DNA from: Deltaproteobacteria bacterium
Lineage (GTDB): Bacteria > Desulfobacterota > Desulfomonilia > UBA1062
Length of the DNA stretch: 64,000 nucleotides
Direction of reading: 5' to 3'
NCBI GenBank assembly: GCA_018433775.1
Contig: JAHDQN010000057.1
Span: 66,121-130,120 of the forward strand
Shown piece after piece: positions 1 through 23,270 of the stretch. Both the position numbers and the translations under genes were made by a program. The notes under the pieces were generated by a model. It searched no databases. It was not told where the DNA came from and was given only the letters and a program-made list of their open reading frames with translations. Positions within the stretch are counted from its first letter, which is position 1. Every line of letters begins with the position of its first letter.

Positions 1-782
1 AGCGCCAGGATATTCACGTTGAACGGCGGCTTGATCCGGGCCAGGGCGGATATGACCGGCTCGCCCGCGACGCAGAAACCCACCCGCAGGCCGGCCAGCC
101 CGTGGGACTTGGAGAGGGTGTGGACCGTGGCCACGTTCGGATGGGAGTCGATGAGCTCCACAGCGCTGAGGAAATCGCTCTGCCGGACAAAGGCCGCGTA
201 GGCCTCGTCCAGCACGACCAGGGTCTCGGGCGGCAGCCCGTCCAGGAGCCTGCGGATCTCGCCTTCCGGCAGGCAGGTGCCGGTGGGGTTGTTGGGATTG
301 GCCAGAAACACGATCCCGGTCTTTTCGGACGACTTGTGCAGGATGTCGTCCACGTCGATGTGAAAATCCCTCATGCCGCTGGCCACGACCTGGGCCCCGC
401 AGACCAGCGAGGCGATCCGGTAGTAGCTGAAGGTGAGCCCGGGAACGATCACCTCGCGGCCCGGCGTGAGGTAGGCCCGGCAGAGCAGGTCGATGATCTC
501 GTCCGATCCGTTGCCCGCAAGGACCTCTTCGCTCCTGCACCCGAAGAATTCAGCGGCTGCGGCGCGCAGCTCGACGGCGTCGGGGTCGGGATAAAGGTGC
601 GCGCCCGCCATTGCCGACTCCATGGCCTGAACAGCCAGGGGGCTCGGACCCAGAGGGTTTTCATTGGATGCGAGCTTGATGGGGTCTTTGATGCCGTAGC
701 GCCCGGCAATGGTGTCTTTGGACGTTCCCGGAACGTATGCGGGGATCTTCTCGGTCCAGGGGGCTGGTCTGGGTTGTCTCAC
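1..782 (-). CDS. hisC: Histidinol-phosphate / aromatic aminotransferase (HisC family), partial. N-terminus at 782, C-terminus runs off the left edge.
   Basis: Hand translation of the minus strand gives ...PAYVPGTSKDTIAGRYGIKDPIKLASNENPLGPSP..., with the LASNENPxGPSP signature of the HisC family. A GTG start at 780-782 overlaps the pheA stop (GTGA). It is missing from the ORF track because no in-window stop follows an ATG; the plus-strand ORF 102..836 is its antisense. Confidence 0.8.
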   Translation of the reverse strand, partial: MRQPRPAPWTEKIPAYVPGTSKDTIAGRYGIKDPIKLASNENPLGPSPLAVQAMESAMAGAHLYPDPDAVELRAAAAEFFGCRSEEVLAGNGSDEIIDLLCRAYLTPGREVIVPGLTFSYYRIASLVCGAQVVASGMRDFHIDVDDILHKSSEKTGIVFLANPNNPTGTCLPEGEIRRLLDGLPPETLVVLDEAYAAFVRQSDFLSAVELIDSHPNVATVHTLSKSHGLAGLRVGFCVAGEPVISALARIKPPFNVNILA

Positions 783-1897
783 TGGATGGTTCTCCCTTCA
801 GGGTATGATCCGAGCACGGTGACATCCCTGGTGTAGCGCCGTAACTCTTCCATGGCCTTTTCCACGTTGTCGTCCATGAGGCTCCCCTGAAAATCGATGA
901 AGAAGATGTATTCCCAGGGGTTTTCCCTGGAGGGCCTGGACTCGATCTTGGTGAGGTTGACCCCCTGCTGGGCGAACACCCCGATGGCGTGATAGAGTGC
1001 GCCCGGGATGTTCTCCAGGGTGAGAATGATGGATGTCTTGGCCTTTCCCTCCACCGGGGTCATGGCAGGCGACACCACCCAGAAGCGGGTGATGTTTTCC
1101 TGAAAGTCGCTGATGTTCTCGGCCAGGATATCGAGGCCATAGAGCCGGGCCGACAGCGAGGACGCCACTGCCGCGGCGTCCTCCCGGCCGCGCGCGGCCA
1201 GGGCGGCGTCCGAAGTGCTGGGGGTCTCCCGCACTTCGGCGCCCGGCAGGTTGTTGGTAAGCCAGTTTCTGCACTGGGCAAGGGCCTGCGGGTGGGAGTA
1301 GACGACACGGACGTTCTCCAGGGTGGTGGTCGAGAGCAGGCAGTTGCGGATGGGGAGCGTGACCTCGCGGTTGACGAAGAGGTGCGAGACAGCCATGAGA
1401 TCCAGCGTGCGGTTCACCATGCCCTCGGTCGAGTTCTCCACCGGCACCACGCCCAGGTCGGCCCGGCGCATCAGGACCTCGCTGATCACCGCGTCGATGT
1501 CCTTCTGAGGCATGAGCCGGGCGTCGTGGCTGAAGAGGACATGCGCTGCCTGGTGGGAGTAGCTGCCCTCCGGGCCCAGGTAGGCGACCTTGCGCCTCTG
1601 CTGGAGCGCGCGCGAGATGCTGAAGATCTCCGTGAAGATCTTCTCGACCGCGGCCGCGGTCAGGGGAGGGCGGAGATGCGCGGTAAGGCGTTGGACAACG
1701 GCCTCCTCCCGGGAGGGATCGAAGGCGTCACGGTTGGTCCTGTTTTTGATCGCACCCATCTCCACGCTCAGCTCGAACCGCTTTCGGAGAAGCTCGAGCA
1801 GCTCGTCGTCGAGAGCGTCGATCTGCGCCCGTATGGCATCCATGTCTTTGTCTTTGCTCATGTTCTCGCCGTCACCCGCATCCACATTACCGCTCAT
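779..1897 (-). CDS. pheA: Bifunctional chorismate mutase / prephenate dehydratase (P-protein), with a C-terminal ACT domain.
   Basis: 372 aa. An N-terminal CM helix (IRAQIDALDDELLELLRKR) is followed by a PDT domain (VAYLGPEGSYSHQAA...) and a C-terminal ACT-like segment (TSIILTLENIPGALYHAIGVFAQQGVNLTKIESRP). Confidence 0.9.
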   Translation of the reverse strand: MSGNVDAGDGENMSKDKDMDAIRAQIDALDDELLELLRKRFELSVEMGAIKNRTNRDAFDPSREEAVVQRLTAHLRPPLTAAAVEKIFTEIFSISRALQQRRKVAYLGPEGSYSHQAAHVLFSHDARLMPQKDIDAVISEVLMRRADLGVVPVENSTEGMVNRTLDLMAVSHLFVNREVTLPIRNCLLSTTTLENVRVVYSHPQALAQCRNWLTNNLPGAEVRETPSTSDAALAARGREDAAAVASSLSARLYGLDILAENISDFQENITRFWVVSPAMTPVEGKAKTSIILTLENIPGALYHAIGVFAQQGVNLTKIESRPSRENPWEYIFFIDFQGSLMDDNVEKAMEELRRYTRDVTVLGSYPEGRTIQ

Positions 1898-2200: not shown

Positions 2201-3373
2201 TTGATGATGAAGAGATATACGGCCATCTTCACCAGATATGCTGTTGTAGTGCTGACAATGACGGCGATGCTGCTCATCCCCACGGGCAGGCAGGGCGACG
2301 CAGAGGTGGTGACTGTGCCCCCGCGGCAGCCAGTGGTTTCCCGTGAGGCCATGAAAAGCATCACCCCCGATCTCATCGAAGACATCGGGCTCACCATCGA
2401 CTGGGAGCTCCAGGACTATATTGCGTCCACGGCCCGGAGATACCGTGTAGGCTTTGCCGCCGTGGCGATCCTCGATCCCTTCAGCGGCGAGATACTCGCG
2501 CTCTACGGCAAGGACTCTCAAGGTGAAGACTGCGGGCTCGGCCTCGACGCCTATCTGGCGGCGAGCCTTTTCAAGGTGGTCACTGCCACGGCCGCCATCG
2601 ATTATGGGGGAATGTCGGTGAACTCCCCCTGCTCATACACCGGCCGTGCGCATACGCTCTACAGGAGCCAGATCTTCCCTGAAAGGGAGCGCTGGCCGCG
2701 GACGATCACCCTGGCCCGTGCCTTTGCCTCGTCCAACAACGTGGTGTTCGGAAAGATCGGTGCCAGGGAGCTGGGCGTAGAGCCCCTTCTGCTTGCGGCC
2801 ATGCGGCTCGGGTTCTGGCAGTCGCCGATGATCGACAGCGAGTGTGCGCCGAGCACCCTGTTTTTCCCGGAGGATGATTTCCATCTCGCCGAGCTCGCGT
2901 GCGGGTTCAACCGCGAGACCAGGGTGTCACCGGTCCACGCGGCCCAGATGGTGAGCGCGGTGCTGAATGACGGAGCCATGGTGACCCCGAGGATCCTGCG
3001 CAACAGCGGCACCGCCTTCCAGCAGGTCCTGAGCGGCGAGACCGCGGATGACCTGTATCTGATGATGCGACAGACCGTGAAGAGCGGCACCGTATCCGGC
3101 GCATTCCGGCGCGTGCGCAATGACCGCGCGATAAGGGGCCTTTCCATCGGGGCAAAGAGCGGCACCATCAAGGGCACGTCTCCGGACGGAAAACGAAACT
3201 GGTTCATGGGCTTTGCCGAAGACCCGGCAACCGGCAAGGCCATCGCCATCGGCTGCCTCGTCATCCACAACGGCTACTACCGCATCCAGGCGGACGACCT
3301 GGCGAGCAAGATCATCCGCTTCCATTTTTCCCGGCCGTTCACTGTCGCCTCTGCCGACGCCGGGAAAACCTGA
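2201..3373 (+). CDS. Penicillin-binding-protein transpeptidase-domain protein (class B PBP / beta-lactamase fold), N-terminal membrane anchor.
   Basis: 390 aa (TTG start in the track). Motifs in the order expected for acyl-serine transferases: SxxK (ASLFK), SxN (SSN) and KSG/KTG (AKSGT). An N-terminal hydrophobic segment is present. Confidence 0.75.
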   Translation: MMMKRYTAIFTRYAVVVLTMTAMLLIPTGRQGDAEVVTVPPRQPVVSREAMKSITPDLIEDIGLTIDWELQDYIASTARRYRVGFAAVAILDPFSGEILALYGKDSQGEDCGLGLDAYLAASLFKVVTATAAIDYGGMSVNSPCSYTGRAHTLYRSQIFPERERWPRTITLARAFASSNNVVFGKIGARELGVEPLLLAAMRLGFWQSPMIDSECAPSTLFFPEDDFHLAELACGFNRETRVSPVHAAQMVSAVLNDGAMVTPRILRNSGTAFQQVLSGETADDLYLMMRQTVKSGTVSGAFRRVRNDRAIRGLSIGAKSGTIKGTSPDGKRNWFMGFAEDPATGKAIAIGCLVIHNGYYRIQADDLASKIIRFHFSRPFTVASADAGKT

Positions 3374-6374: not shown

Positions 6375-6869
6375 GTGAGGAGAGGGGGCACCATGAACAG
6401 GCCTGGACTGTTTATGGCTTTTATGATCGTTGCGGTTGCGTGCCTGATGTATCTCTTCGCCCTTTCATCTGTCCTATACGCCGGCGCCGACACTGAACCG
6501 GAAGAGACCTTTATCATGGAAAATCTCCTGCCCGCACAGCAGGGCGACCCGCAGGCCCAGCTCTTTGTGGGCTATCTCTACGAAACCGGCCAGGGCGTCC
6601 GGCAGGACTACTCCGAGGCCGCCCGGTGGTACCGCAAGGCGGCCGAGCAGGGCAACACCATCGCGCAGGCACAGCTGGGGAACATGTATCGTCTGGGCAA
6701 GGGGGTCTCGCAGAGTTACATCATGGCCTACATGTGGTTCGATGTCTCGGCCAGGGGGGGCAATGCGAGCGCCAGGGACCTCAGAAGGGCCGTGGCCGCA
6801 GGCATGAGCCCCGGGGAGATCGCCGAGGCAAAGCGCATGTCTGCCGAGTGGAGGCCGGGAAAGCGGTAG
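6375..6869 (+). CDS. Sel1-repeat (TPR-like) secreted protein.
   Basis: 164 aa. Signal peptide followed by two or three Sel1-like repeats (AQLFVGYLYETGQGVRQDYSEAARWYRKAAEQGNTIAQAQLGNMYRLGKGV). Confidence 0.65.
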   Translation: MRRGGTMNRPGLFMAFMIVAVACLMYLFALSSVLYAGADTEPEETFIMENLLPAQQGDPQAQLFVGYLYETGQGVRQDYSEAARWYRKAAEQGNTIAQAQLGNMYRLGKGVSQSYIMAYMWFDVSARGGNASARDLRRAVAAGMSPGEIAEAKRMSAEWRPGKR

Positions 6870-6938: not shown

Positions 6939-8663
6939 TTATGACGGGCTGCCCGGGTCGAGCAGCGCCATTCTTGTTTCTATCTCGTGGGGCGGGGCTC
7001 CGCTCAAAAGGGCGTCCTGAAGGAGACTGAGCGCAGGTGCCATTTTCCCTTCAGCCCGGGAGATATCAGATGCCAGGAGCCGGGCACTCCAGCACCGGGG
7101 ATCGAGCGTGGTCGACGCCTCTGCCATTGCAGAAGCGGCAGCGGACTGGTCCTGCTCGAAGAGCCGCTGTCCGATCAGCACACAGAGTCCGGCCAGCTCT
7201 TCGGCGCTCCCGATCTCGAGGTCCGTGCTCATACTGAAGATTTCCATGAGCCGTTCGATCGCGCTTTCGACGTGCTGCATCTCGCCGCAGGCAATACCCG
7301 TGGATGCCGTGGCGGCAAGGATCCGGAGATCGTCCGGAAACGACCCCAGCGCCTTGAGGTAGACCGCATGGGCATCGGTCGTCCTGCCTGCGTGCCGGTA
7401 CAGCCGTGCCAGAGCCAGAATCACCTGGACATCCTCGTTTGCACCGTGGCCATAGGCGTGCTCCAGGTGGGTGAGGGCTTCATCGACCTTTCCTCCGGAT
7501 ATCAGGGCAAAGCCGAGGGCCTTCCTGGGAAGGGGCCATTCCGGGTTCATCCCGATGGAATCCCGGTAAGCGATGGCGGCCTGGCTGGATCTGCCGGTTT
7601 TTTCAAGGGCGCGGCCCAGCGAGTAGGACATGGCAGCCCTTATGTCCGAGGGCTTGGCATATCCATCCACCTCGAACCCGTGCCTTTGCGCGGCCAGAAA
7701 GGATTGTACAGCCTCGCCGTAGCGCTCGAGCCCGAAGAGAACCATACCCAGGCCGTAGTGCATGTATCCGCTCCGGGGAGACCGTGCCACACCGTCCAGG
7801 GCCTCTTCGAGGGCCTCGTTCATTCTGCCCTGTTTCAGGTGAATGTCGGTCGCCAGGAAGGAGCTCGTGAGATACCAGCCTTCGCTCTCTGAGCATTTCC
7901 TCGCCTCCTTGATGTGTTCCATGCATTTGTCGTAGTCTCTGAGGCCGTAATAGGTCATGGCGATCATGAAGTGCCGGTGTCCTGAATCCGTGCCCTCAGC
8001 GAGTTCGTCGAGCTGGATTGCAAGGTTTCTCCTACGCTTGGCCTCCAGGGACGACTGGTCTGCATACCCGGTGTGGTGGATGGCGATGCCCGTGTTCACA
8101 AATCTTATCCCCGAGGTCTTCTTGAGCGAGGGCAGGAGCTGCTCGTGGATGCGTCCCTCGAACCTCACGCCCTCCATATGGGGGAAGATGCGCAGCTGGA
8201 TGGAACCCAGGGAGCCCCAGGTGACAGGGGTGTTCAGGAGTGTGAGGAAATACGCGGTGTGTTTCCCCGGATCGAGCGATCTTTTCAAACCTCGCAGGGC
8301 TGCCGCCGCCTCTTGTGTCACGTGGTCGTCCGCGTCGAGCCACAGGAGGTAGTCGGACTCAGCCAGCGCGATAGAGGCGTTGCGCGCCGCCGAGAAATCG
8401 TCGCACCAGGAGAAATGCCCGATCTTCGCCCCAAAGGACTTTGCCAGAGAGACGGTTGAGTCGATCGACCCGGTGTCCACGACGCAGATCTCGTCGACTA
8501 CGTCCCTGATGTCGGAGAGGATGCGTCCGAGGTTTTGCTCCTCGTTCTTCACGATCATGACAGCCCCCAGGGTCGGCTTTTCGTGGGGTTTTGTCACGGC
8601 CGCTCCCGATGATGCCGGGGGATCGATGACTGCACGGCGCGCCCCGCCTTCATGAAGCTTCAC
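6939..8663 (-). CDS. Glycosyltransferase family 2 (GT-A) catalytic domain fused to C-terminal TPR repeats; candidate flagellin glycosyltransferase (same composition as Listeria GmaR, from memory).
   Basis: 574 aa. GT2 core PTLGAVMIVKNEEQNLGRIL...VVDTGSIDSTV...DYLLWLDADD (DxD), then TPR-like repeats. Paralog of 21222..22892. Last gene of the nine-gene operon; overlaps the upstream 1598-aa gene by 14 nt. Confidence 0.8.
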   Translation of the reverse strand: MKLHEGGARRAVIDPPASSGAAVTKPHEKPTLGAVMIVKNEEQNLGRILSDIRDVVDEICVVDTGSIDSTVSLAKSFGAKIGHFSWCDDFSAARNASIALAESDYLLWLDADDHVTQEAAAALRGLKRSLDPGKHTAYFLTLLNTPVTWGSLGSIQLRIFPHMEGVRFEGRIHEQLLPSLKKTSGIRFVNTGIAIHHTGYADQSSLEAKRRRNLAIQLDELAEGTDSGHRHFMIAMTYYGLRDYDKCMEHIKEARKCSESEGWYLTSSFLATDIHLKQGRMNEALEEALDGVARSPRSGYMHYGLGMVLFGLERYGEAVQSFLAAQRHGFEVDGYAKPSDIRAAMSYSLGRALEKTGRSSQAAIAYRDSIGMNPEWPLPRKALGFALISGGKVDEALTHLEHAYGHGANEDVQVILALARLYRHAGRTTDAHAVYLKALGSFPDDLRILAATASTGIACGEMQHVESAIERLMEIFSMSTDLEIGSAEELAGLCVLIGQRLFEQDQSAAASAMAEASTTLDPRCWSARLLASDISRAEGKMAPALSLLQDALLSGAPPHEIETRMALLDPGSPS

Positions 8664-11600
8664 CCGTGAAAGCCCGTGTGGCCGATCCGGCCTGTTCCTG
8701 GAGGGCGCACAGCCTGCCGATGTCGGGGTTTTCGGGCTGGGCCCTTTTCACCAGCTCGATGAGGTCGGCCTGGACAAGGTCGTGCCTGTTCGTGGCAACG
8801 AGTGCATCCAGCAGGTTGGCCAGTGCGTCCGGGTCCCGCGGATTCAGGCTCAGGGCCTTGTGCATGGTGACGATGGCGTCGTCGATACTCCCGAGCTCCC
8901 ACTGGATCACTCCGAGGTTGTTCAGTGCCTGGGAGTTTGCCGGATCGGTCTCGAGGACTCTCCTGAAGACCCTGATCGCTCCGGCAAGATCGCCTTCTGC
9001 ATACCGCTGCTCGCCCATCTCGATGAGTATCCCGATCCGCTGGTTCATGGTGAGGTGGAGGCGATACCCGTCTTCTGTCATCTCGAGTATGTCTTTCCAC
9101 TTCTCTGCGAAATAGGTGCGGTTTTTTCCCATGACCTGTTCATAGTCGATGGCGTTGCCGGTGAAGGTCATGCTGCCGTAGTGGTGGATGAAGACATCGC
9201 GGGCCATGATGTTGCGGAAGCCTGCAATGCGCGAGCGCAGGCAGAGGTCGTCGTCCTCGAAGTTGCCGCTGCCGTATTTTTCATCAAGGCCGCCGATGAT
9301 CTCGATAAGGGAGCGTTTCATGAGCAGGCAGAAGCCTACGAGACGAAGGGTGTCCTCGAATCTGCCTGCGTTGTCGCGGGCGAGATCCCGGGCAAAGGCA
9401 TGCATCCGCTCAAGACCGCTTCCGTCGGGTGCACCCTCGACGAGCTGGGGGCCGGAGACCGAGTTGCTCATGGGGCCGACCATGCCGATGTCGCCCGAGC
9501 TGTCGAGGTGTCCGAGCATGCCTGAGAGCCACCCCTGGGTGACGATCACGTCGTTGTTCAGGAGCAGGATGTACGCTCCTTCGGCCGCCTGGATGCCCTG
9601 ATTGCAGCCTCTGGCGAATCCGAGATTCTGCTCGTTTTCGATGAGCTTGTAGTTGCTGTTTTTTTCCGCCAGGGTTCGGAGCCACTGAACCGTGCCGTCG
9701 GTCGATCCGTTGTCCACGAAGATGATCTCGTGGGGCTCGGGCGTGTGCTCCTTGATGCTCTGCACGCACTGCTTCGTATATTCAAGTCCGTTGTAACTGA
9801 GGATCACGATGGAGACCGGACCCTGCATTGCCTCGGGCTGCCGCAGCGATTCGTGCTCGCCCTGTCTGCCCGGTGCCTCGTAGAGTCGGATACGCCGGGC
9901 ATCGGTCCAAAGAAGAGTCCCGTCCTCCTCTATGACGGCATCGGGGGTGATCCTGCCGATCCATTTTTCGTGCAGGCGCTGGATATTCTCCTTGATCTTC
10001 GTAAAGCGCTCGGGCCCGCTTTTCGATTCATGGTGGATCAGCACGCTTTCCGGCTGGTAGACGAGAGTCCATCCCTTCTCCTGGAGCCTGAAGCACAGAT
10101 CGAGGTCTTCGTAGCCGTTCCAGTACCCCTCGTCGAACATGCCCACCTCCTCAAAGAGGTTTCTCCGTACCAGAAGACAGCCTGCGGTAAGGGCCTGATA
10201 CGTCCTGGATACGTTGGCATCCCGGTGGTCAGCGGGCAGGCCGTAATAGATATGCCTCCCGACAAGGGGGTCTGGAAGCTTTTTGTCGTCGATTATCAAC
10301 ACTCCGGCATGCTGGATGGTTCCATCGGGGAAAAGCATCCGGCTGCCGGCTGCCGCGGCCGTGGGATCGCTGTCCAGCACAGTAACCAGAGCGGCAAGCC
10401 ATCCCGGCCGGGGCTCGGTGTCGTTATTGAGGAAGAGAACATAGGGCGATGAGGCCGCCTGCGCCCCCTGGTTGCAGGCCCGGGCGAAACCCAGGTTCTC
10501 CGGATTGGCGATGACCCTGACCCTGTTCCCGAGGCCTTCGAGATAATCCCGGGTCCCGTCCGTGGATCCGTTGTTCACGACAATGCACTCGAATGCTCCG
10601 GGGGGCGTGTTGGAAAACAGGGCATCGATGCATTTCCTGGTGAATTCGACCTTGTTGAAGACGGGTATCACGATCGACACACGGCTTGCTGTACTGGTGC
10701 ATTCGCCCGTGACCGGAGACGGCTGCATCTCCCCGGGCATTTCCGATTCCGCCCCGGCACCAGGTGACGAGTGGGCGGGCCGGACCTGTCCACGGTCGTT
10801 TGCGAAAAGCACGGCCCTGCGGGTGGCTTCAAGATATGTCCTCCCGAATCTGTGATCCGGTTCGAGATGACAGCCTTCGCCCCATTCGTTGAAGGCATTG
10901 ATGAAAACCATCCTTTCTTTCGTCTGTGATTGCAACAGCCTGGCGAGGACTTCCTTGAGCCATAATTCATAGAGCTGTGGCGTCGTGTTATGGAAAATTA
11001 CGGCCCCTTTCCGGCGCCTCGGGGAATTGTCCCAGGACGGGCAGACACAGGGGAAGCGGAGATAGTCGGGCTCGCTTTTCGAAAGTGCCGCCCGGATAAG
11101 GGCATGATAATCGTAGACGTGGTGTCCGGTGTGCATCAGGTCTTCACGCGGTTTTCCCAGGTGGATGCCGTCGGGCTGGAATTCTATGGCAGCGTCGAAG
11201 CCCAATGCCCTGGGATCGGTCATGTCCTGGACGAACCGCTCGACGCGGCAGAGAAAGAGATCCCCGATCCCCTGCCTGCGGGCTTCTTCTCGCCAGAGCG
11301 TGGTAGTGGCGAGCGGATCGGGCAGATTGCTCGCCCGGTACACGATGAACAGAGGTTTGCCGTCTACCTGGATGTATCGAGGGTCCCTGAATATCCCGCA
11401 GAGGTGCCTGATGTGGTCAAGATCGTCCTGAGCGCTGTAGTTCTGCTGTATCAGGACATCGCAATCGCGGCCGTCCCAGGCACGAGTCCAGTTCTCGTTG
11501 GCCCAGCACAGGCAGAAGGGGAAGTCGGGTTCCCCGGATTCCAGCACCTGTCGCAGGGGATAGTCGAGCAGGAGCTTGCCGTTGAACCAGTAATGGTAGT

Positions 11601-13446
11601 AGCAGAATCCATGGATGCCGTGCTCGCGCGCGAGCTCGGCCTGGGCCTTTCTCGTCTCTGCGAGGCGCAGGTCGTAATAACCCAGATCTGACGGCACATG
11701 GGGCTGATAGTGCCCCGGGAAGAGGGGTTTTGCCTTGGAGACATTCGTCCACTCCGTGAACCCCTTTCCCCACCAGATGTCGTTTTCCGGAATGGGGTGG
11801 AACTGAGGGAGGTAGAAAGCGATGGCGCGGACATCCCGTGAGTGTCCGGCGGGCTCACGGTTATCTGAAGTCGGGTTTGGATCCGCACGGGTGCCTTTTC
11901 CCCCAGGATATTTTCGGGAAAGGTTTACTGCGGGACGGCCCGCGGCTGCAGAAGAAGACAAGTCGCTGTCCGTTATCTCGTTCTTCCAGAATTGCTTGAC
12001 CTTATCCAAGCTCTGTAATTCGCTCCTTTCGGCAATCTCCCTGTTCTCCTCATCATCGAAAAAGACCATCTCTCTGAGCTCTTCCGGACGATGATCGCAC
12101 GAATCCAGGATCCGGTACATCTCGACAAGCCCGGCATGAAGGGCATTATCAGCCCTGTGTCTGAGATAGTCGGTGCGGATTTCCCGAGCCACATCCATGC
12201 GCAGCTCAGGGTTTCTGATAAAGCCGTCCAGTTTCTCGAAAAATTCCTCCCTTGTCATGTCCTCGCCGAAATGCCTCCGGTAGGCATCCGACTGCAGCAG
12301 GGTATGGTTTCTGAACACTCGGGATTTGCCGTATTTGGGCACCGGGCAGCTCAATCCTATGACCGGGGCATGTGACTGGACCCCGAGCGATGGTTGGGGC
12401 ATGGCCTCCAGGCAGATATCCGATGCCAGATAGTAGTTGGTGAGGTCCGGTATCTGCGCGTGGAACATCACTCTCTCAGGCAGATCGAATCCCCTGACCA
12501 TCGGATCGTTTTTCGGCAGACCGACCACGATGCACACAACATCCGGATACATATCGAGGATAACCTTCAGGAGATGGAAATAATTGTACTCCTTGTTCGG
12601 GATATATTTTTCCCTCGTTCCCACCGTCAGGATAACGGTTTTCCGGGGGTCGATGTGCAGCAGGGCTTTTGCCTTTGCTTTTTCGTCCGCGTCAACCCGT
12701 CTGTCCATATGATCCGACAAGGTGAACGGGAGAAAAAGACAGTTGTCCGCCGATCGGTATCTCATAGTGAAGTCAGTATGATAGCGCGTGTGGCACACGA
12801 TCAGATCGGCAATGGACCTTCCGTGCCAGAACCAGGAATGGGCATGATTCTCCAGAGCAACCGGAACATCGCCCGGCACCGCAAAGGCGAGCGAGGGGAT
12901 TACATCATGCGGGTGGGCATATGTGATCACCCGCTGGAAACGCTGGGCAAGAAGCCTCAGGGCATAGGCCCGCTCAAAGGGTGTCCGGAAGTTTTTCAGA
13001 GAACACGCTTGGACATATGTCTCCATCCCGGCTCCGAACCATTCCGGGATGACGGACAGACTGGTGTTTGTCAGGACCAGGCACTGATGGCGTTCTCCCG
13101 ATCTTCTCATGATCTGGCGGATCAGCCGGGTGTGGCCGCCGATGCCTGCGACCTCGGTCGCGACGTGAAGGGTGCTGTATTCTGTCGGGAGAGGGAACCA
13201 TGTGCTGATGTCCTGCGGAATGTTTCCGATCTCGACGAGATCTTCCAAGTGGTTGCCATAAAAGGATAACAGGTTTTCGATATCCGAATCGTAGAAGCAA
13301 CCGGGATGGTTCCGCCACGCGAACTCTCCGAGTTTTCTGATCAGCAACAGGTTCTTGTCTATCGATGCGGTCCCTGATGCATGAAAGTCGATTTTAGACT
13401 TCGCCAGCTGGTAGAAATGTTTGTTCCGTTGAAGAAAATCTTCCAT
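8650..13446 (-). CDS. Giant multidomain glycosyltransferase: unknown N-terminal domain (about 480 aa, possibly GT-B-like), WbsX-like domain, two tandem GT2 (GT-A) domains and C-terminal TPR repeats.
   Basis: 1598 aa. WbsX-like block: AIAFYLPQFHPIPENDIWWGKGFTEWTNV...CWANENWTRAWDG. First GT2: VSIVIPVFNKVEFTRKCIDAL...VVNNGSTDGT...FLNNDTEP...GYEDLDLCFRL. Second GT2: VSIVILSYNGLEYTKQCVQSI...FVDNGSTDGT...LLNNDVIV...GNFEDDDLCLR. TPR repeats at the C-terminus (ALNNLGVIQWELGSIDDAI...). The many internal ORFs on both strands are antisense or out-of-frame artefacts. Confidence 0.75.
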   Translation of the reverse strand: MEDFLQRNKHFYQLAKSKIDFHASGTASIDKNLLLIRKLGEFAWRNHPGCFYDSDIENLLSFYGNHLEDLVEIGNIPQDISTWFPLPTEYSTLHVATEVAGIGGHTRLIRQIMRRSGERHQCLVLTNTSLSVIPEWFGAGMETYVQACSLKNFRTPFERAYALRLLAQRFQRVITYAHPHDVIPSLAFAVPGDVPVALENHAHSWFWHGRSIADLIVCHTRYHTDFTMRYRSADNCLFLPFTLSDHMDRRVDADEKAKAKALLHIDPRKTVILTVGTREKYIPNKEYNYFHLLKVILDMYPDVVCIVVGLPKNDPMVRGFDLPERVMFHAQIPDLTNYYLASDICLEAMPQPSLGVQSHAPVIGLSCPVPKYGKSRVFRNHTLLQSDAYRRHFGEDMTREEFFEKLDGFIRNPELRMDVAREIRTDYLRHRADNALHAGLVEMYRILDSCDHRPEELREMVFFDDEENREIAERSELQSLDKVKQFWKNEITDSDLSSSAAAGRPAVNLSRKYPGGKGTRADPNPTSDNREPAGHSRDVRAIAFYLPQFHPIPENDIWWGKGFTEWTNVSKAKPLFPGHYQPHVPSDLGYYDLRLAETRKAQAELAREHGIHGFCYYHYWFNGKLLLDYPLRQVLESGEPDFPFCLCWANENWTRAWDGRDCDVLIQQNYSAQDDLDHIRHLCGIFRDPRYIQVDGKPLFIVYRASNLPDPLATTTLWREEARRQGIGDLFLCRVERFVQDMTDPRALGFDAAIEFQPDGIHLGKPREDLMHTGHHVYDYHALIRAALSKSEPDYLRFPCVCPSWDNSPRRRKGAVIFHNTTPQLYELWLKEVLARLLQSQTKERMVFINAFNEWGEGCHLEPDHRFGRTYLEATRRAVLFANDRGQVRPAHSSPGAGAESEMPGEMQPSPVTGECTSTASRVSIVIPVFNKVEFTRKCIDALFSNTPPGAFECIVVNNGSTDGTRDYLEGLGNRVRVIANPENLGFARACNQGAQAASSPYVLFLNNDTEPRPGWLAALVTVLDSDPTAAAAGSRMLFPDGTIQHAGVLIIDDKKLPDPLVGRHIYYGLPADHRDANVSRTYQALTAGCLLVRRNLFEEVGMFDEGYWNGYEDLDLCFRLQEKGWTLVYQPESVLIHHESKSGPERFTKIKENIQRLHEKWIGRITPDAVIEEDGTLLWTDARRIRLYEAPGRQGEHESLRQPEAMQGPVSIVILSYNGLEYTKQCVQSIKEHTPEPHEIIFVDNGSTDGTVQWLRTLAEKNSNYKLIENEQNLGFARGCNQGIQAAEGAYILLLNNDVIVTQGWLSGMLGHLDSSGDIGMVGPMSNSVSGPQLVEGAPDGSGLERMHAFARDLARDNAGRFEDTLRLVGFCLLMKRSLIEIIGGLDEKYGSGNFEDDDLCLRSRIAGFRNIMARDVFIHHYGSMTFTGNAIDYEQVMGKNRTYFAEKWKDILEMTEDGYRLHLTMNQRIGILIEMGEQRYAEGDLAGAIRVFRRVLETDPANSQALNNLGVIQWELGSIDDAIVTMHKALSLNPRDPDALANLLDALVATNRHDLVQADLIELVKRAQPENPDIGRLCALQEQAGSATRAFTGEAS

Positions 13447-13590
13447 GATTCCTGTTCGTCTCCCTCAACCGAGGATCCGGTCAGATTCGATGGGCATCGT
13501 CTGTATGCAGAACAGACGTCTTGAAGAGCCCGCATATTCCCCACAGATGGTGTTCCTGAATGTGATGAACAGATATGAGATGAGCCTGCC

Positions 13591-14598
13591 TCATGATCTG
13601 CTCACCAGCCTCATATCCTTGAGGCATTGCACCCCGGCCCTTACCCGCAACCAGGCAGGGTCGGGGTCTCTGTCCTGAGCCCACGCAATCAGGGCGGCAG
13701 GTATGTCGGCTCCGGCTTCGTGGGAAAAGGGATAGTGTCCTCCGAAACGCGGGTTGGCTTCCAGCAGGCAGGGGCCGTTCCGGTCGACAATGACATCCAC
13801 GTCGAGCATTCCCGTATGTATCAACCGTTCGCCAATGAAACGGCCGAATGACTCCAGGACCGGGTCAGCCACTGTCTCCGCCGCATCCGTCTCCCCAGAG
13901 CGCATTGCAAGCTTGCGCTTCACGAAGCAGGCCGCAAACTTGCCGTTCAGGTCGTTTACTACATCCAAGCCGTATTCCTGCCCCTGGACATATTCCTGAA
14001 CAATCAGATCTTCCCGGCCGGACCTCAACAGACCGTTCGATTCCATGCGCGATATCTTGCCCTTGGCCAGCAGGAAGGAGCTGTGCAGCTCATCTTCGGT
14101 AAACACGGTCTCTACGGCGATGGATCCCTGGCCATATCGAGGCTTTACCACCAGGGGGAAGTCAAGGGTCCCATCCGCTATATATTGCAAGGCCGAATCC
14201 AGACCGAGGGCGGTCTTGGGGACGCGTATACCTTCACGCATCCCGAATTCCCAGAAGGCATACTTGTCCAGGCAGGTGTCCAGCACGGACGGATCGGACA
14301 CGGCGACTTTCGTCCCCAGTTGCCGGAACCGGTTGCAGGCGCGCGCAATAAAAGGTGACTCCCAGTCATGCAGCGAGCACAGCAGCCGTACCTCGGAGCG
14401 CCGGCAGACGTCCAGCAGCTGCTCGATGAAATCCTCGCTGCCTGCGGGCGGGACGACGACAGCCCTGTCCGCGGCCAGCATACCGGTGGCATGGGCGTGC
14501 GAATTGGTGGCAATGACCAGGCCGCGACCTCCGAGCGCCTGCTGGAAATAGCGCACCAGGTAACTGCGGCGCCCCACGCTGCTCAGGAGTATATTCAT
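13591..14598 (-). CDS. ATP-grasp domain ligase (CPSase-L-chain-like). Probable start at MNILLSSVGRR; the track ORF extends to 14643.
   Basis: N-terminus M.ILLSSVGRR typical of ATP-grasp proteins; central VVKPRYGQGS and C-terminal LLEANPRFGG segments. The upstream 15 codons overlap the GNAT gene. Confidence 0.7.
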   Translation of the reverse strand: MNILLSSVGRRSYLVRYFQQALGGRGLVIATNSHAHATGMLAADRAVVVPPAGSEDFIEQLLDVCRRSEVRLLCSLHDWESPFIARACNRFRQLGTKVAVSDPSVLDTCLDKYAFWEFGMREGIRVPKTALGLDSALQYIADGTLDFPLVVKPRYGQGSIAVETVFTEDELHSSFLLAKGKISRMESNGLLRSGREDLIVQEYVQGQEYGLDVVNDLNGKFAACFVKRKLAMRSGETDAAETVADPVLESFGRFIGERLIHTGMLDVDVIVDRNGPCLLEANPRFGGHYPFSHEAGADIPAALIAWAQDRDPDPAWLRVRAGVQCLKDMRLVSRS

Positions 14599-14605
14599 GG
14601 ATGCA

Positions 14606-15193
14606 TCAGTCCCCGCCCTCCGATGTCTTCTTCCTGGGCGCATCTTTCAACCATTCTTCCTTCAGAATCCGGTGCTGATAGATATCCTGCAATGCTCCTC
14701 GACAGTAGAAGTGCTGTGCCATGCAGGCTTCCTGCACGAACCCGTTTCTTTCATAAACCCTCCGGGCATGGGTATTTGCAGGGATGGTCCAGAGGTAGAT
14801 CTTGTTGAGATTCAGATTTCCGAAGGCATACCGGAGGACCATCGGGATCACCTCGTCAGGGATGTGACGCCCCCAGTAATCCTTTTCACCGATGGTCATG
14901 TAAAACTGCGCGTGCAGGTGTCGCCGGTCGATCCGGAGCAGTCCGGTCATGCCGATCACCCTGTCTGTTGCCGTATCGCAGATGGAGAGATCGATGCGGC
15001 TGTGATGCTGTTCCTGAGCGGCCCGTCTGAACCAGGCCATGGTCGTTGCCAGTGAGATCGGATAATCCATCAACAAAGTCCTGTTGATTTCCGGGTCGTT
15101 GAACCATTTTGGCCGGAGCGTGAGATCATTCTCCTCCAGACCGCGCAGGTAGACCCTTGTACCCGAAAACACCATTTCTCTATGATCGCTCAT
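14606..15193 (-). CDS. GNAT-family N-acetyltransferase (RimL / PseH-like).
   Basis: 195 aa with a GNAT fold (RVIGMTGLLRIDRRHLHAQFYMTIGEKDYWGRHIPDEVIPMVLRYAFGNLNLNKIYLWTIPANTHARRVYERNGF). Confidence 0.75.
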   Translation of the reverse strand: MSDHREMVFSGTRVYLRGLEENDLTLRPKWFNDPEINRTLLMDYPISLATTMAWFRRAAQEQHHSRIDLSICDTATDRVIGMTGLLRIDRRHLHAQFYMTIGEKDYWGRHIPDEVIPMVLRYAFGNLNLNKIYLWTIPANTHARRVYERNGFVQEACMAQHFYCRGALQDIYQHRILKEEWLKDAPRKKTSEGGD

Positions 15194-15200
15194 GCATACC

Positions 15201-16196
15201 TCAGTATCCTTTTGTGAAATCGACCCTGTTGATCAAAGGACTGCCTGTTGCAAAACGATTCAGATTCTCCACCGCATCAGGCAAATGCGGGAGCTCACCC
15301 CGTATCATCCCGCCGCGGTGCGGAGACATGACCACGTTGTCCAGGGTTTCGAACGGAAAGCGTGAGGGCCTGGATAAAGAGTGTCCCCGTTGCGGGTACT
15401 GGTACCAGACATCTATACCCGCACCGGCAATCCGGTTCTTCTTGAGGACACAGAACAGTGACTCCTCGTCAATGATGTCACCTCTCGAAACATTGATGAG
15501 ATAGGAGGTGCTCTTCATGAGCTCGAGCTGTTCCCGTCCGATCATTCCCCTGGTCGCGGGAGTCAGGGGGGCCGTTACGATCAGCACGTCACAACGCTTG
15601 AACAGGTGATTCAGCCCCTCAGGCCCCAGTATGGCCAGTTCCCCTTCCTTCCTGCCTTCGGAAGCAAGGGCGCGGATGGTTACATCAAATCCCTTGAGCA
15701 TTTTCTCGAGCTTTCGACCTACGGCGCCATACCCTATCAAACCGATATCTTTTCCGTATAATGCATCCGGTGGTGTAAAGTCTTCAGAGCCGGGTCTGCG
15801 CCAGTTACCCTGCTTCAAGGCACAGTGGTGTGACGGTATCTGCTTCATACAGGCAAGGAGCAGGGCCATCGCCAGTTCGGCTACGGATGCGGCATTGCTG
15901 TGAGAGTTGCACACCTGGAAGGAATATTTCTCAAGCAGGCCGAAGTCAATCTTGTCCAGTCCGGTCCATGGGATCTGCAGGAGCTTCACGCCGGTTGCCG
16001 CATCCATAACTTCCGGGGCGGGCACATCGCCCAGCAGTATGTCGATGCCCCTGGATGCTTCTTCCGCCAGGGTGGGAATCGAGTAGTCCTTCGGAATGAC
16101 GAACACCACATCCGGCATGACATGGGTGCGGAGATATTCCAGGTCGAGGTCCCAGAACTTCCGGGTCAGGAGGCACTTAATCTTCTTTTTTTTCAT
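15201..16196 (-). CDS. D-isomer-specific 2-hydroxyacid dehydrogenase family, NAD-binding (SerA/GhrB-like).
   Basis: 331 aa. Rossmann motif GLIGYGAVGRKL and a catalytic region NVSRGDIIDEESL...AGAGIDVW...SPHRGG typical of the D-2-HADH family. Confidence 0.8.
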   Translation of the reverse strand: MKKKKIKCLLTRKFWDLDLEYLRTHVMPDVVFVIPKDYSIPTLAEEASRGIDILLGDVPAPEVMDAATGVKLLQIPWTGLDKIDFGLLEKYSFQVCNSHSNAASVAELAMALLLACMKQIPSHHCALKQGNWRRPGSEDFTPPDALYGKDIGLIGYGAVGRKLEKMLKGFDVTIRALASEGRKEGELAILGPEGLNHLFKRCDVLIVTAPLTPATRGMIGREQLELMKSTSYLINVSRGDIIDEESLFCVLKKNRIAGAGIDVWYQYPQRGHSLSRPSRFPFETLDNVVMSPHRGGMIRGELPHLPDAVENLNRFATGSPLINRVDFTKGY

Positions 16197-17355
16197 GAGC
16201 TGATGACTCCATGAATTCCAGAATTCTCTTCATCCCCTCCTCGAACACATCGGTTTGATTCACGAAGGAGAGGCGGCAATAGTCCGGATAATTATTCCCG
16301 AACGCCAGCCCGGGCACTATCGCAACGTTTTTTTGATCGAGGAGTTCAACGGCGAAAGTGTCACAGTCCATCCGGGAAGCAGATATATTGATGAATGTGA
16401 AGTATCCACCCTCGTACTCCGTACCGCTCAGATAAGGTGAGCGGCTCAGCAGGCGATCGTAGATGATCTTTCGCTCGCGGAGCTTCCGGACATAGTTTCC
16501 GATATGATCCCGGTTTCCGTCGAGAGCGGCAAGGGCTGCCTGCTGGATGAAGGCAGCCGTATTGGTATTGATGTGCTCGTGTATGGTGAGCATGGCGCGT
16601 GTGACCGTGGCAGGGGCGTGGACGTAACCGATGCGCCACCCGGTCATGAAATGGGCCTTGCTGAATCCCCCGACCGTAATGACCCGGTTTTCAATGCCGG
16701 GAATCGACGCCGGGGCACGGTGCTTGGTATCACCTACCACCATTGATTCGTAGATCTCGTCCGATAGCAGGTATAATCGCGGATGTTGTCTCATCTCCTC
16801 GGCAATGAAGAGGATATCGTCGTCGGAAAGCATTCTGCCTGTGGGGTTGTGCGGCGTATTGATGAAAAGCAGCTTTGTCCTGTCCGTAAGGCAGCTCGAG
16901 AGTTTTTCCCGGTCCAGATCGAATACGCCCGGGGTCATGTCCACATCGCACACCTTCACCCCGGAACCGGTGATGTGCACGATCGGGGAATTGCTGACGT
17001 AGCAGGGCCGCAGGAGGGCGACCTCATCTCCTGGTTCGAGCAGGGCTGCGCACGCCAGGAAAAGGGCATTTTTCGCCCCCGGTGTGATGATGATCTGCTC
17101 TGCGCCTGCCTCTATCCCATGCGAAGCCTTCAGGTAGCGGGCAATGCATTCCCTTAAGGGTGGCAGCCCCTGTGGGTTGGAGTATTTCGTCAAGCCATCG
17201 CGCAGGGCTTTTACCCCGGCCTCCACGATGTGAGGGGGTGTCGGCACCTCTGCCTCTCCCAGGCCCAGGGAAATGATCTCTCTGCCCTGTCGTACATGTT
17301 CCCGGACCTTCTGACTGAATTCCAGCGTGACCGATGGTGTTATCTGTTTCATACC
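16177..17355 (-). CDS. Class I/II PLP-dependent aminotransferase (AspC family). Start taken at MKQITP; the track ORF 16177..17499 carries a spurious N-terminal extension.
   Basis: PLP-lysine context GGFSKAHFMTGWRIGY. NPQG, TPGAK and INTPHNPTG motifs. 14-nt gap to the upstream DegT gene stop. Confidence 0.8.
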   Translation of the reverse strand, partial: GMKQITPSVTLEFSQKVREHVRQGREIISLGLGEAEVPTPPHIVEAGVKALRDGLTKYSNPQGLPPLRECIARYLKASHGIEAGAEQIIITPGAKNALFLACAALLEPGDEVALLRPCYVSNSPIVHITGSGVKVCDVDMTPGVFDLDREKLSSCLTDRTKLLFINTPHNPTGRMLSDDDILFIAEEMRQHPRLYLLSDEIYESMVVGDTKHRAPASIPGIENRVITVGGFSKAHFMTGWRIGYVHAPATVTRAMLTIHEHINTNTAAFIQQAALAALDGNRDHIGNYVRKLRERKIIYDRLLSRSPYLSGTEYEGGYFTFINISASRMDCDTFAVELLDQKNVAIVPGLAFGNNYPDYCRLSFVNQTDVFEEGMKRILEFMESSAHEKKED

Positions 17356-17368
17356 TCTCACCTTTGTT

Positions 17369-18475
17369 TTACGAAACGAGAATGTCGATGGTCCGGTACA
17401 GGTCTTTGTCGGTGAGGCCGTAGTACAGAGGCAGGCACAGGATGCGCCTGGTGATGTCCTCGGAAACGGGCGCCGGCTGATACTCCACGATCTTGCCAAA
17501 CGTGTTCACCGATGGATAAAAGTACCTTCTGGGATGGATATCATGCCGCTTCAATTTCTCCTCAGCCTTGGACATCTCCGATTCACTCGTGAAGATGACC
17601 GGGAAATATGAACAGTTCGCCTCACCTGATCTGATACTCTGAAACCGTATCGATGCCACACCACTCAATGCATCGCGGTAGATCGCATACTTCCTCTTTC
17701 TGTCCGCGAGAACGGCATCGTAGTATTTCAGATTTGCGATCCCCAGCGCTGCGTGAACTTCGGTCATTTTTCCGTTAAAGCCATCTTCAACGATGTCCCT
17801 CGCCTCGTCATGGCCGAAGAAACGTATTCTCCTGAGCCGCTCATGCAGTTCGAAATCCCCGGTGATGCATCCCCCGCCTTCAGCCGTGTTCAGCAGCTTG
17901 GTGGCATGCAGACTCGTGGCCGTGATGTCACCGCATTCCAGCAGACTCCTGCCCCGATACATCGAGCCGACCGCATGTGCCCCGTCATAGATCACCTTCA
18001 GCCCGTATCCGGTTGCGATATCCTCTATCGACTGGACATCACAGGGGTTCCCGAACACATGAACCGGCATGATTGCGCAGGTCCTGTCGGTAATGAGCGG
18101 CTCTATATTGCAGGGGTCGAGGTTCAGTGTTTCGGGGTCGATGTCGCAAAAGATCGGTACGCACCCTTCCCATTTGATGGCGCTCACCGTGGCGATCCAG
18201 GTGAACGGGGTGGTGATGATCTCTCCCTTCAGCCCCAGAGCCTTGATCGCCATCTGAAGCGCAATGGTCCCGTTGGATACGGCTACGAAACTGGAAAGCC
18301 CCAGCTTCTTGCAAAGATCCCTCTCCAGCTGCTGAACCAGTGGGCCGTTATGGGTCAGTATGCCCCGTGACCATGCACCCCTGAGCAGTTCGACATACTC
18401 CTCCAGAGGGGCGAGAGAGGGCATGGTAACAGGGATCGAAGGGTGATTATTCATCTGTTCTGATTCTGAATTCAT
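17369..18475 (-). CDS. DegT/DnrJ/EryC1/StrS family sugar aminotransferase (PseC/EvaB-like). Start at MNSESEQ (18475) or MNNHPS (18454); the track ORF extends to 18841 through the upstream gene.
   Basis: Conserved core ...VAVSNGTIALQMAIKALGL...PFTWIATVSAI...VHVFGNP...DGAHAVGS...TSLHATKLLNTAEGG (Schiff-base Lys in HATK). Confidence 0.85.
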   Translation of the reverse strand: MNSESEQMNNHPSIPVTMPSLAPLEEYVELLRGAWSRGILTHNGPLVQQLERDLCKKLGLSSFVAVSNGTIALQMAIKALGLKGEIITTPFTWIATVSAIKWEGCVPIFCDIDPETLNLDPCNIEPLITDRTCAIMPVHVFGNPCDVQSIEDIATGYGLKVIYDGAHAVGSMYRGRSLLECGDITATSLHATKLLNTAEGGGCITGDFELHERLRRIRFFGHDEARDIVEDGFNGKMTEVHAALGIANLKYYDAVLADRKRKYAIYRDALSGVASIRFQSIRSGEANCSYFPVIFTSESEMSKAEEKLKRHDIHPRRYFYPSVNTFGKIVEYQPAPVSEDITRRILCLPLYYGLTDKDLYRTIDILVS

Positions 18476-19439
18476 GGATGAGCCTCGCTTGATTGATGTT
18501 CTGGGCATATTCGTCTCCGGCAATATCCGGATCATGTACTGCACGGGAGAAATACTCCAGTATCCCGGCGAAATGATCGTCAGCCTCGAGGGTGAGAACC
18601 TCTTTTCCTTCGGAGGTCTCAATGACCACCTCGGGTCTGAAACCCGGGGGCGCGGTGAAGATCCGGTTTGCCGAGAGCTTCCCCCTGCTTCCCCATAACT
18701 CGAGGGAGCACTGATAGTGATGGTCAAAGCCGAATGCGATCTCGGAAAAGAGCGGTCCGTTCTTCTGCCGCAGAAAGCCTCCACCCCAGATGTCCACGCG
18801 CCTCTGCTCATCGATGCAGAAGCTTGCGGCTTTGACCTCAAGGTCCGCGCCGAGGAATATCTGGGATATTTTTATGGGATACGCCCCTGCATCCAGCAAG
18901 GCGCCGCCTCCCAGGTCTTTCCGGTACCGGATGTTATCCGGATCGGGAAAGGGGGGGAACCCAAAGGATGAGCGCACACAGCGCAGCTCGCCGATCACCC
19001 CGTTATCCACCATTCGCTTGATTTCCGCCAGCTGGCTATGGAAACGGAACTGAAAGTTCTCGACCAGCGCAAGTCCCTTGTCCCTGGCTGCACGATTGAG
19101 CGATGTAACCTCGCCCACGCTGCAGGCAAGAGACTTTTCCACCAGTACGTGGAGCCCCTTGTTCAGTGCATGTTCGATCCACGGCGCGTGCAGGGCATTG
19201 GGCAGCGGGATGTACACCGCTTCCAGGCCTCCGGCATCCACCAGCGACTCGTAACTCCTGAAGGCCTGAGTGTCGAATTCCCTTGCCCACGCATCGGCCT
19301 TGTCTCCATCACGGCTGGCGATTCCGGCCAGCCGGTACAGGCGGCCCTGTTCGAGGATCGCAGGGATCATCAGTCTTCCGGCGACGCTTGCACAACCCAG
19401 CACACCTATATTTATTCTTTTTCCGGTCATTTCTCTCAA
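18447..19439 (-). CDS. Gfo/Idh/MocA family NAD(P)-dependent oxidoreductase (candidate sugar C-3 dehydrogenase/ketoreductase, WbpB/KijD10-like).
   Basis: 330 aa. N-terminal Rossmann RINIGVLGCASVAGR and EKSLA (the EKP-like motif) with a C-terminal alpha/beta domain. ATGA overlap with the upstream dehydratase stop. Confidence 0.8.
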   Translation of the reverse strand: MREMTGKRINIGVLGCASVAGRLMIPAILEQGRLYRLAGIASRDGDKADAWAREFDTQAFRSYESLVDAGGLEAVYIPLPNALHAPWIEHALNKGLHVLVEKSLACSVGEVTSLNRAARDKGLALVENFQFRFHSQLAEIKRMVDNGVIGELRCVRSSFGFPPFPDPDNIRYRKDLGGGALLDAGAYPIKISQIFLGADLEVKAASFCIDEQRRVDIWGGGFLRQKNGPLFSEIAFGFDHHYQCSLELWGSRGKLSANRIFTAPPGFRPEVVIETSEGKEVLTLEADDHFAGILEYFSRAVHDPDIAGDEYAQNINQARLIHEFRIRTDE

Positions 19440-20851: not shown

Positions 20852-21221
20852 GTGAATACACCGTTTCCCGGTCCCAGTGGCAAAAAGCCGTCTCCCGTTC
20901 TCAAACAGTATCTTCCCGGACCGTTGTTTCCTTGCATGAGGCTCCGCCCGTTATGGGTGAAAAGCCGCCCACTTTGAGAAAGCATCATAACCATGTTCTG
21001 CTGACCCAACATAAACCGGGATGAATTCAGCAATATATATGCCATGCACATACCGGTGGTTATGTTTATGATTTAATAGGGATAATCCCCGCTTGTTGCG
21101 AGAGAGAGTCAATATATTGACTTTTTGCATGGCCGAATTTGGCAACCGCCGGAGATTCACTGTCCAGGGAAAAATATCACCGGCTGCGCTGCTCATGATT
21201 GCGCAGGGAAAAGACGATAGG

Positions 21222-22892: not shown

Positions 22893-22979
22893 TCGAGGAG
22901 CCGGCTCGGCCGTTATCGGCACGGCCATCTTTCCACAGGGAGCGCCAGAAATCCTCCCGTTTATCCGGCTGCACGGGTT

Positions 22980-23075: not shown

Positions 23076-23108
23076 ACCTGTTTCAAAAAAGGAATTGTTA
23101 TTCAGTGT

Positions 23109-23135: not shown

Positions 23136-23270
23136 GGGGGGAAGAGATAAAAACCAATGAAAGGAGGGGGGCAAGTAACACATTGTCTGATCAGGACAAT
23201 AAAAACTGATCAAATATAAAAAAACGGCCAAGGATGGCCGGAAAAACAAAAAATCAAGGAGGATTTAATT

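Follow-up and report, generated by a model that had tools for sequence, protein, structure and literature searches.

The closest described counterparts of the two genes considered here are flagellin and peptide glycosyltransferases (GTs) in which a family 2 (GT2) catalytic domain precedes helical repeats. GmaR of Listeria monocytogenes is both a flagellin O-GlcNAc (O-linked N-acetylglucosamine) transferase and the anti-repressor of MogR, and its tetratricopeptide repeat (TPR) domain has been proposed to recognise flagellin (PMC9638930). Two GT2+TPR candidates occur in one island of C. sporogenes, where this combination of domains was used as a criterion for a flagellin GT (PMC13317340). Both fgt1 and fgt2 lie upstream of fliC (PMC3927599), and PA1091 is required for any glycosylation (PMC11833859). 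The Maf-1 and Maf-2 paralogs modify different serines, acceptor specificity being given by a TPR domain (bioRxiv 10.1101/2023.12.03.569772). Fgt1/Fgt2 and Maf-1/Maf-2 are both pairs with experimental work behind them. The present analysis concerns a pair of GmaR-like genes, designated paralogs A and B, in a 64,000-nt stretch (the window) of Deltaproteobacteria contig JAHDQN010000057.1 (assembly GCA_018433775.1, positions 66,121 to 130,120). Both probably encode flagellin glycosyltransferases (FGTs) of GmaR/SunS type that belong to separate ancient lineages. The genes at issue and their presumed acceptor are the following.

6939..8663, minus strand: paralog A, GmaR/SunS-type GT2 followed by TPR, last gene of a minus-strand operon (translation, Pfam)
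21228..22892, plus strand: paralog B, GmaR/SunS-type GT2 followed by TPR, divergent from the operon and directly upstream of flagellin (Pfam)
23271..24404, plus strand: flagellin, 377 aa, with a Ser/Thr-rich central domain (Pfam Flagellin_N and Flagellin_C, NCBIfam)

Comparison with described systems

A and B share with GmaR a homologous N-terminal GT2 domain (over its whole ~200 aa), the TPR/helical repeats that follow it, and a flagellin-linked gene. They differ from it in size and source, GmaR being a 637-aa protein of the Bacillota with linker and antirepressor domains that bind MogR (PMC9638930), whereas A and B are proteins of 552-554 aa from Desulfobacterota. SunS and ThuS likewise consist of a GT-A domain followed by polypeptide-binding helical repeats and are the best structural matches to a model of A. 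However, these enzymes S-glycosylate cysteine in small bacteriocin peptides and are encoded with a precursor and a transporter, while the partner gene of A and B is flagellin. A glycocin (SunS-like) role for A and B was ruled out, given that precursor and transporter genes are missing and that the link to flagellin is strong.

The GT2(+TPR) FGTs of Pseudomonas and Clostridia (FgtA/PA1091, CD0240, Fgt1/Fgt2 and predicted FGTs of Clostridium), compared here by description, are similar in being cytoplasmic GT2 enzymes encoded beside fliC that place the first sugar on Ser/Thr of flagellin. Pairs of these genes are in tandem, whereas A and B stand at opposite edges of an island, and the sugars differ: rhamnose/viosamine, GlcNAc, or a deoxyhexose with phospho-N-methylthreonine in those systems, a predicted 4-amino-2,4,6-trideoxyhexose here. 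The Maf-1/Maf-2 pairs of Shewanella, Campylobacter and Clostridium are a functional analogy, i.e. two paralogous FGTs in one organism, but their catalytic fold and family are unrelated and their donors are nonulosonic acids; in Pfam, neither A nor B has a match of this kind.

Sequence, domains and family of the paralogs

A first-pass annotation, made from the sequence alone, had called two paralogous GmaR-like GT2+TPR genes at 6939..8663 (minus strand) and 21222..22892 (plus strand). Both open reading frames (ORFs) are present, and each contains PTLGxVMIVKNEE, VVDTGS, SDYLLWLDADD and EGRIHEQxLPS. The start of A is likely GTG 8597 (552 aa; preceded by a GGGAG Shine-Dalgarno motif, and the NCBI call) or GTG 8663 (574 aa; overlapping the upstream stop). 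For B the candidates are ATG 21222 and ATG 21228, within an ORF spanning 21093..22892 on the plus strand, the database representative using 21228. Among database proteins, P0001 matches A exactly and P0068 is 98% identical to B, its annotated source being a Desulfomonilia metagenome-assembled genome.

Near-colinearity had been noted for about the first 250 aa. The two proteins are indeed colinear, but that extent is too short, as the BLASTP alignment runs over the whole protein (549 aa, 38% identity, 56% positives, 3 gap positions, E 6e-126). By A residues, identity is 67% in 31-120, 37.5% in 121-225, 29% in 226-330, 39% in 331-450 and 27% in 451-574. The TPR/C-terminal half compared on its own scores z = 81 over shuffles, so the similarity extends well beyond generic GT2 motifs, confinement to which had been named beforehand as the result that would speak against pairing the genes. 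Judged by this alignment, A and B are true full-length paralogs.

Assignment to the GmaR-like GT2+TPR proteins is likewise supported. Pfam Glycos_transf_2 (PF00535) lies at the N-terminus of both proteins and is followed by many TPR families. Against PDB sequences (phmmer), the ~200 N-terminal residues of A match the GmaR GT domain (22ao) at E 1.9e-24 and the SunS/ThuS S-glycosyltransferases at E 4.5e-16 and 1.6e-12; a family profile built from 17 sequences gives E 7e-40 for 22ao and E 7e-29 for SunS. NCBIfam TIGR04195 reaches 3e-18 with A, far under the family cutoff. The C-terminal TPR-linker-antirepressor part of GmaR was not returned by phmmer with A (E <= 0.01, PDB sequences), the GT-domain chain being the only GmaR match; 'GmaR-like' is therefore used here of the catalytic domain and the GT+TPR layout, and implies no regulatory role. 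By Pfam no Maf, FlmG or GT41 (O-GlcNAc transferase, OGT)-type catalytic domain was found in A or B, the GT2 type alone being present.

An AlphaFold2 model of A (mean predicted local distance difference test score, pLDDT, 90; predicted template modelling score, pTM, 0.77) shows a GT-A alpha/beta domain at residues 10-176 and then 20 helices between residues 181 and 546. In a Foldseek comparison of this model with the PDB, SunS/ThuS (7msn, 7msp, 7msk) rank best at E 5e-15 to 4e-14, followed by the TPR domain of OGT. The motifs IVKxEE, VVDTGS, DFSAARN, WLDADD and HEQ are invariant over 17 family members including A and B, and 126 alignment columns are identical and conserved in both clades defined below. 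Since the family-invariant residues (DADD, HEQ etc.) are kept in both, A and B both look catalytically competent as predicted from these motifs. The family is large, with 2646 and 3692 proteins at E <= 1e-10 for the two queries, among the 8000 candidates scored for each.

Some homologs of 835-865 aa (P0004, P0005, P0006, P0010, P0013, P0015, P0018, P0019, P0022 and P0039) carry an extra N-terminal stretch of ~296 aa before a complete GmaR-like GT2+TPR module. Most have an entry for PF10111, which is another GT2-type family, and several form the sister group to the B clade. Such proteins appear to be natural fusions in which a second GT has been joined to a protein-directed one.

Origin of the pair

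The annotation had read the two genes as a duplication of the priming FGT, possibly a duplication scar of island acquisition, and had proposed a phylogeny as one check. A neighbour-joining tree of 81 full-length homologs (top hits only, 100 bootstrap replicates) places A and B in separate clades. A groups with P0002, P0003, P0007, P0008, P0009, P0011, P0012 and P0014 (bootstrap 78/100) and B with P0068, P0034, P0042, P0050, P0056 and P0064 (bootstrap 100/100); A and B are sisters in 0/100 replicates. By distance from A, B comes 76th of 81, with 75 of the 80 homologs from other genomes being nearer, and A is only the 68th-closest sequence to B. When DNA traces of duplication or gene conversion between the two genes were sought, megablast gave no match and blastn a single one, 256 nt long at 70% identity and within the GT core; a repeat search found no long inverted repeat flanking the island.

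Each clade also has its own characteristic position relative to the borders of the locus, which are marked by these genes together with flagellin.

6375..6869, plus strand: Sel1-repeat gene, convergent with A, conserved left border (Pfam Sel1, E 2e-20)
24471-24881, plus strand: FlaG (Pfam)
24946-28053, plus strand: FliD cap protein, unusually long at 1035 aa (Pfam)

B-clade genes lie directly upstream of flagellin-FlaG-FliD in four related loci, L002, L003, L006 and L087, the last two of which have GT41 (OGT-like) genes alongside instead of a deoxysugar operon. A-clade genes close variable sugar/GT operons, with Sel1 and DUF4139 next in L004 and L005, each covered to 10 kb around the gene. The Sel1-side position is also held by two other clades, as a single gene in L090 and as a tandem pair (P0016 and P0046) in L089. 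At equal organismal distance, judged from a TetR protein 78% identical in both the L006 and the L090 comparisons, the B ortholog of L006 is 53% identical, while the sole GmaR-like gene of L090 is 41% identical to A and likewise to B. Given the separate clades and clade-typical positions, the locus appears to be a composite of two old FGT lineages with no local duplication. From these sequence comparisons A and B are anciently diverged and are not a fresh duplication, and neither the proposed duplication within the locus nor the scar has stood up.

A remnant of a flagellin gene behind B is the one true scar of the locus.

22958..23086, plus strand: remnant of a flagellin 3' end, right after the B stop (22892), translation RVDARAALSIIDDAIHKAGAVLGDIGALMNRFD ending at a stop codon

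In a tblastn comparison it is 47% identical over 68 aa (E 4e-11), and as DNA it forms a 129-nt direct repeat, 78% identical to 24104-24232 of the intact flagellin. L002 and L003 have the remnant as well, but L006 and L087 lack it. It points to either the deletion of a tandem flagellin gene or a recombination event immediately behind B.

Organization of the island

Related loci share a conserved frame, with prephenate dehydratase, transpeptidase, DUF4139 and the Sel1-repeat gene on the left and flagellin, FlaG, FliD, DUF1285, TetR, BKACE and LysM-DUF4015 on the right; the right side of the window is identical in layout. Measured against this shared frame, the variable island extends over 6939..22892, with A and B at its two ends. 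The earlier description of two genes bracketing the island and facing outward is thus borne out, A being the last gene of a nine-gene operon and B divergent from the operon's first gene, and their outermost positions, between Sel1 and flagellin, are confirmed by comparison with the related loci. A Sel1 gene stands in the same position beside a GmaR-like gene in L004, L005, L089 and L090, and the flagellin-FlaG-FliD synteny is the same in L002 and L006. The remaining genes and sites of the left flank, the operon and the flagellin side are as follows, the calls for the seven sugar genes (13591..20851) being taken from L001 and L003.

779..1897: prephenate dehydratase, left flank
2201..3373: transpeptidase, left flank
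8650..13446, minus strand: giant 1598-aa multi-GT protein (WbsX, GT2, GT2, TPR), directly upstream of A (Pfam, NCBIfam)
13591-14598, minus strand: PylC-like ATP-grasp ligase (Pfam)
14606-15193, minus strand: GNAT (Pfam)
15201-16196, minus strand: D-2-hydroxyacid dehydrogenase (Pfam)
16177-17352, minus strand: class I/II aminotransferase (Pfam)
17369-18475, minus strand: DesI-like, DegT-family aminotransferase (closest 2po3, E 3e-58)
18447-19439, minus strand: KijD10-like sugar 3-ketoreductase (Pfam; PDB 3rbv, E 1e-67)
19436-20851, minus strand: EvaA-like NDP (nucleoside diphosphate)-hexose 2,3-dehydratase (Pfam; PDB 4j7g, E 5e-108)
20852..21227: divergent intergenic region of ~370 bp between the operon's first gene and B
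23109..23134, plus strand: sigma-28-type promoter-like site upstream of flagellin, TAAAGTGCAAAACTTTTTTGCCGATA

The nine minus-strand genes, from 20851 down to 6939, are tightly packed: neighbours overlap by, or are separated by, no more than 52 nt, apart from one 144-nt gap. Promoters in both directions are presumed within 20852..21227; scans for sigma-70 promoters and terminators at the end of A and in this region gave weak sigma-70-like matches no better than those in shuffles. Chance would give 0.12 matches to the sigma-28-type pattern across the 64-kb window, and the site listed above is the only one. GC content at third codon positions (GC3) is 0.61-0.76 for island genes (A 0.76, B 0.64) and 0.79-0.86 for the core flanks.

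By established deoxysugar biochemistry, as applied to EvaA/KijD10/DesI-type enzymes, we infer that the operon would yield an N-acylated dTDP (deoxythymidine diphosphate)-4-amino-2,4,6-trideoxyhexose. We know of no flagellar glycan for which a 4-amino-2,4,6-trideoxyhexose of this N-acylated type has been described. An antibiotic-type deoxysugar trio (17369..20851, minus strand) is housed in a flagellin glycosylation island. The giant 1598-aa multi-GT is likely the enzyme that elongates the glycan, as predicted from its domains. Its residues 1-540 (11827..13446, minus strand) match no Pfam family at E <= 0.01 and represent an uncharacterised domain joined to three glycosyltransferase domains.

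Other observations concern the surroundings. An 18-nt inverted repeat at 24417..24458 (plus strand), 89% complementary with a 6-nt loop, begins 13 nt past the flagellin stop and is likely a transcription terminator or an mRNA-stabilising hairpin. Farther to the right are a 456-aa CheD + HDOD + HD protein (45138..46508, minus strand) and another protein in which HDOD is fused to a histidine kinase (35694..38129); the latter protein adjoins a response-regulator/PAS histidine kinase (38126..40873). These CheD/HDOD and kinase genes, ~8-20 kb from the flagellin locus, may be concerned with motility-related signalling.

Association with flagellin in related loci

The family-level context was surveyed in 80 genome loci from many phyla, retrieved via the GT motifs and taken from among the matches listed; most come from distant phyla and few from close relatives, so the sample suits family-level linkage to flagellin, not co-occurrence of A and B within the lineage. 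A flagellin-like ORF is present in 50 of the 80. It lies within 2 kb of a GmaR-like ORF in 44 loci, on the same strand in 40 and downstream of the GT, as with B, in 34. At least two GmaR-like ORFs occur in 23 of the 80, and both features together in 13. Altogether the loci hold 72 flagellin ORFs in 1.25 Mb; genomes generally carry few flagellin ORFs each, so this density is far above the genomic background. Multiple paralogous FGTs beside flagellin are, by the figure of 23 in 80, common, and the A/B pair at a flagellin island is a fairly common arrangement. In the window the B stop is 378 bp from the flagellin start; A is in the same island, 14.6 kb off.

In comparison with L002 and L003 (over 13591..30316), protein identity is 98-99% for B and the genes of the island, 94-96.5% for the core flanks, 80-89% for FlaG and only 79-80% for flagellin. 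This suggests that the island has been recently shared or strongly conserved while flagellin is diversifying or recombining.

Several further features of the related loci were seen. L004, L005, L006, L087 and L088 encode, beside the GmaR-like gene, separate large TPR + GT41 (OGT-like) proteins of 609-2194 aa, an indication that these islands encode a further type of TPR-guided protein glycosyltransferase; there is none of this sort in the window. In L002 (GCA_050949585.1) three genes, those for the giant GT, the 2-hydroxyacid dehydrogenase and a class I/II aminotransferase, are split into two gene calls each, which could reflect pseudogenisation of the cassette or assembly frameshifts. FliD has 1035 aa in the window, 1023-1025 aa in L002 and L006, and 636 aa in L090, which is without a flagellin-proximal B-clade GT; a correlation of FliD length with a B-clade GT, in very few genomes, is possible.

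Proposed function and alternatives

As protein-directed GT-A (GT2) enzymes of the cytoplasm, with the C-terminal TPR as substrate-binding domain, A and B would bind flagellin through their TPR domains before its export. Each would then attach a first sugar to serine or threonine in the central domain, rich in both residues, of the presumed acceptor, the flagellin at 23271..24404. The B lineage appears to travel with flagellin-FlaG-FliD just upstream of flagellin, and the A lineage appears to move in exchangeable sugar/GT cassettes, which it closes at the island's Sel1-side edge; the cassette here comprises the EvaA/KijD10/DesI-type pathway and the 1598-aa three-GT elongase. A would work with this giant protein and the special nucleotide sugar of the island, while B would work independently, possibly with a common (housekeeping) UDP-sugar. 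We infer that A and B would prime independently, at different sites and/or with different first sugars. The specific division of labour into two sites or two glycans, close to the annotation's suggestion of two glycoforms or two target residues, is a reasonable possibility and is offered tentatively. A fuller version, in which vertically inherited, flagellin-linked B adds a basal sugar, the exchangeable A cassette builds a second glycan with the N-acylated 4-amino-2,4,6-trideoxyhexose elsewhere, and the FGT genes at the edges serve as semi-conserved anchors for cassette swap by recombination, is rather unlikely as a whole. Swapping across such anchors would explain why the island is 98-99% and the flanks 94-96% identical, with flagellins at only 80%.

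Several points weigh against two old lineages working side by side. The tree is distance-based and includes top hits only, with moderate support for the A clade (78), and the contexts inspected were a handful per clade with 10-kb flanks each; one A-clade locus, L088, shows no Sel1 within its contig. One GmaR-like gene suffices in L006, L087 and L090, so the second enzyme here could be redundant. Only 9 conserved positions discriminate the clades, and these are scattered, none clearly indicating a different donor or acceptor. RmlA and RmlB (dTDP-glucose synthase and 4,6-dehydratase), moreover, were searched for in the 64-kb window and were not found.

One alternative is sequential action on one glycan, in which one enzyme (probably B) primes and A adds a later sugar or docks the giant GT onto flagellin, possibly in an A-B or A-giant-GT complex. 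It draws on the adjacency, with possible translational coupling, of A to the giant multi-GT gene, a neighbourhood of giant GT and GmaR-like gene that recurs in L089, L090 and L091, and on the homologs in which an extra GT2 domain is fused ahead of the GmaR-like module. In P. syringae, too, the products of fgt1 and fgt2 are both flagellin glycosyltransferases, yet Fgt1 alone is stated to put rhamnose on serine (PMC3927599). However, in L090 a giant GT is accompanied by just one GmaR-like gene, on the Sel1 side, with none near flagellin, so an enzyme of the Sel1-side type can apparently serve as the sole protein-directed GT. A also retains all family-invariant catalytic residues and a full TPR domain, and sequential action is on balance unlikely.

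A target other than flagellin for one of the paralogs, e.g. the long FliD, or a GmaR-like regulatory role through the C-terminal helical domain, is very unlikely. GmaR is itself bifunctional (PMC9638930), FliD has 1023-1035 aa where a B-clade gene is present (the window, L002 and L006) and 636 aa in L090, which has none, and 30 of the 80 listed family loci have no flagellin nearby. Yet the correlation with FliD comes from very few genomes and adjacency to flagellin is the dominant pattern in the family; on the regulatory side, no MogR-type partner was identified and the part of GmaR that would confer such a role went unmatched by A in the phmmer search (E <= 0.01). Finally, that A and B are redundant copies from a recent in-locus duplication of a single priming FGT, left as a by-product or scar of island acquisition, is largely refuted and hardly credible: the shared architecture, near-gapless alignment and inverted placement at both island edges would fit it, but 38% amino acid identity, the lack of a megablast match or long inverted repeats, GC3 of 0.76 versus 0.64, the 75 of 80 foreign homologs nearer to A, the failure to pair as sisters in any of 100 bootstraps and the occurrence of orthologs of each clade at its own position in other genomes all oppose it.

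Significance

Taken as probable FGTs of two old lineages, A and B make up an ordinary, well-explained feature that holds no surprise. Most work on flagellin glycosylation has been done in pathogens; here a GmaR/SunS-type system is recorded from an uncultured, sulfate-reducer-type lineage of the Desulfobacterota (Desulfomonilia-like). The locus also provides a comparative frame, with conserved Sel1 and flagellin borders, a hypervariable interior and two FGT lineages at characteristic edges. The predicted 2-deoxy-aminosugar would widen the known chemistry of flagellar glycans. Should A and B prove to act on different sites or with different sugars, they would offer a compact model of how acceptor specificity is programmed by TPR domains in GT2-type protein glycosyltransferases.

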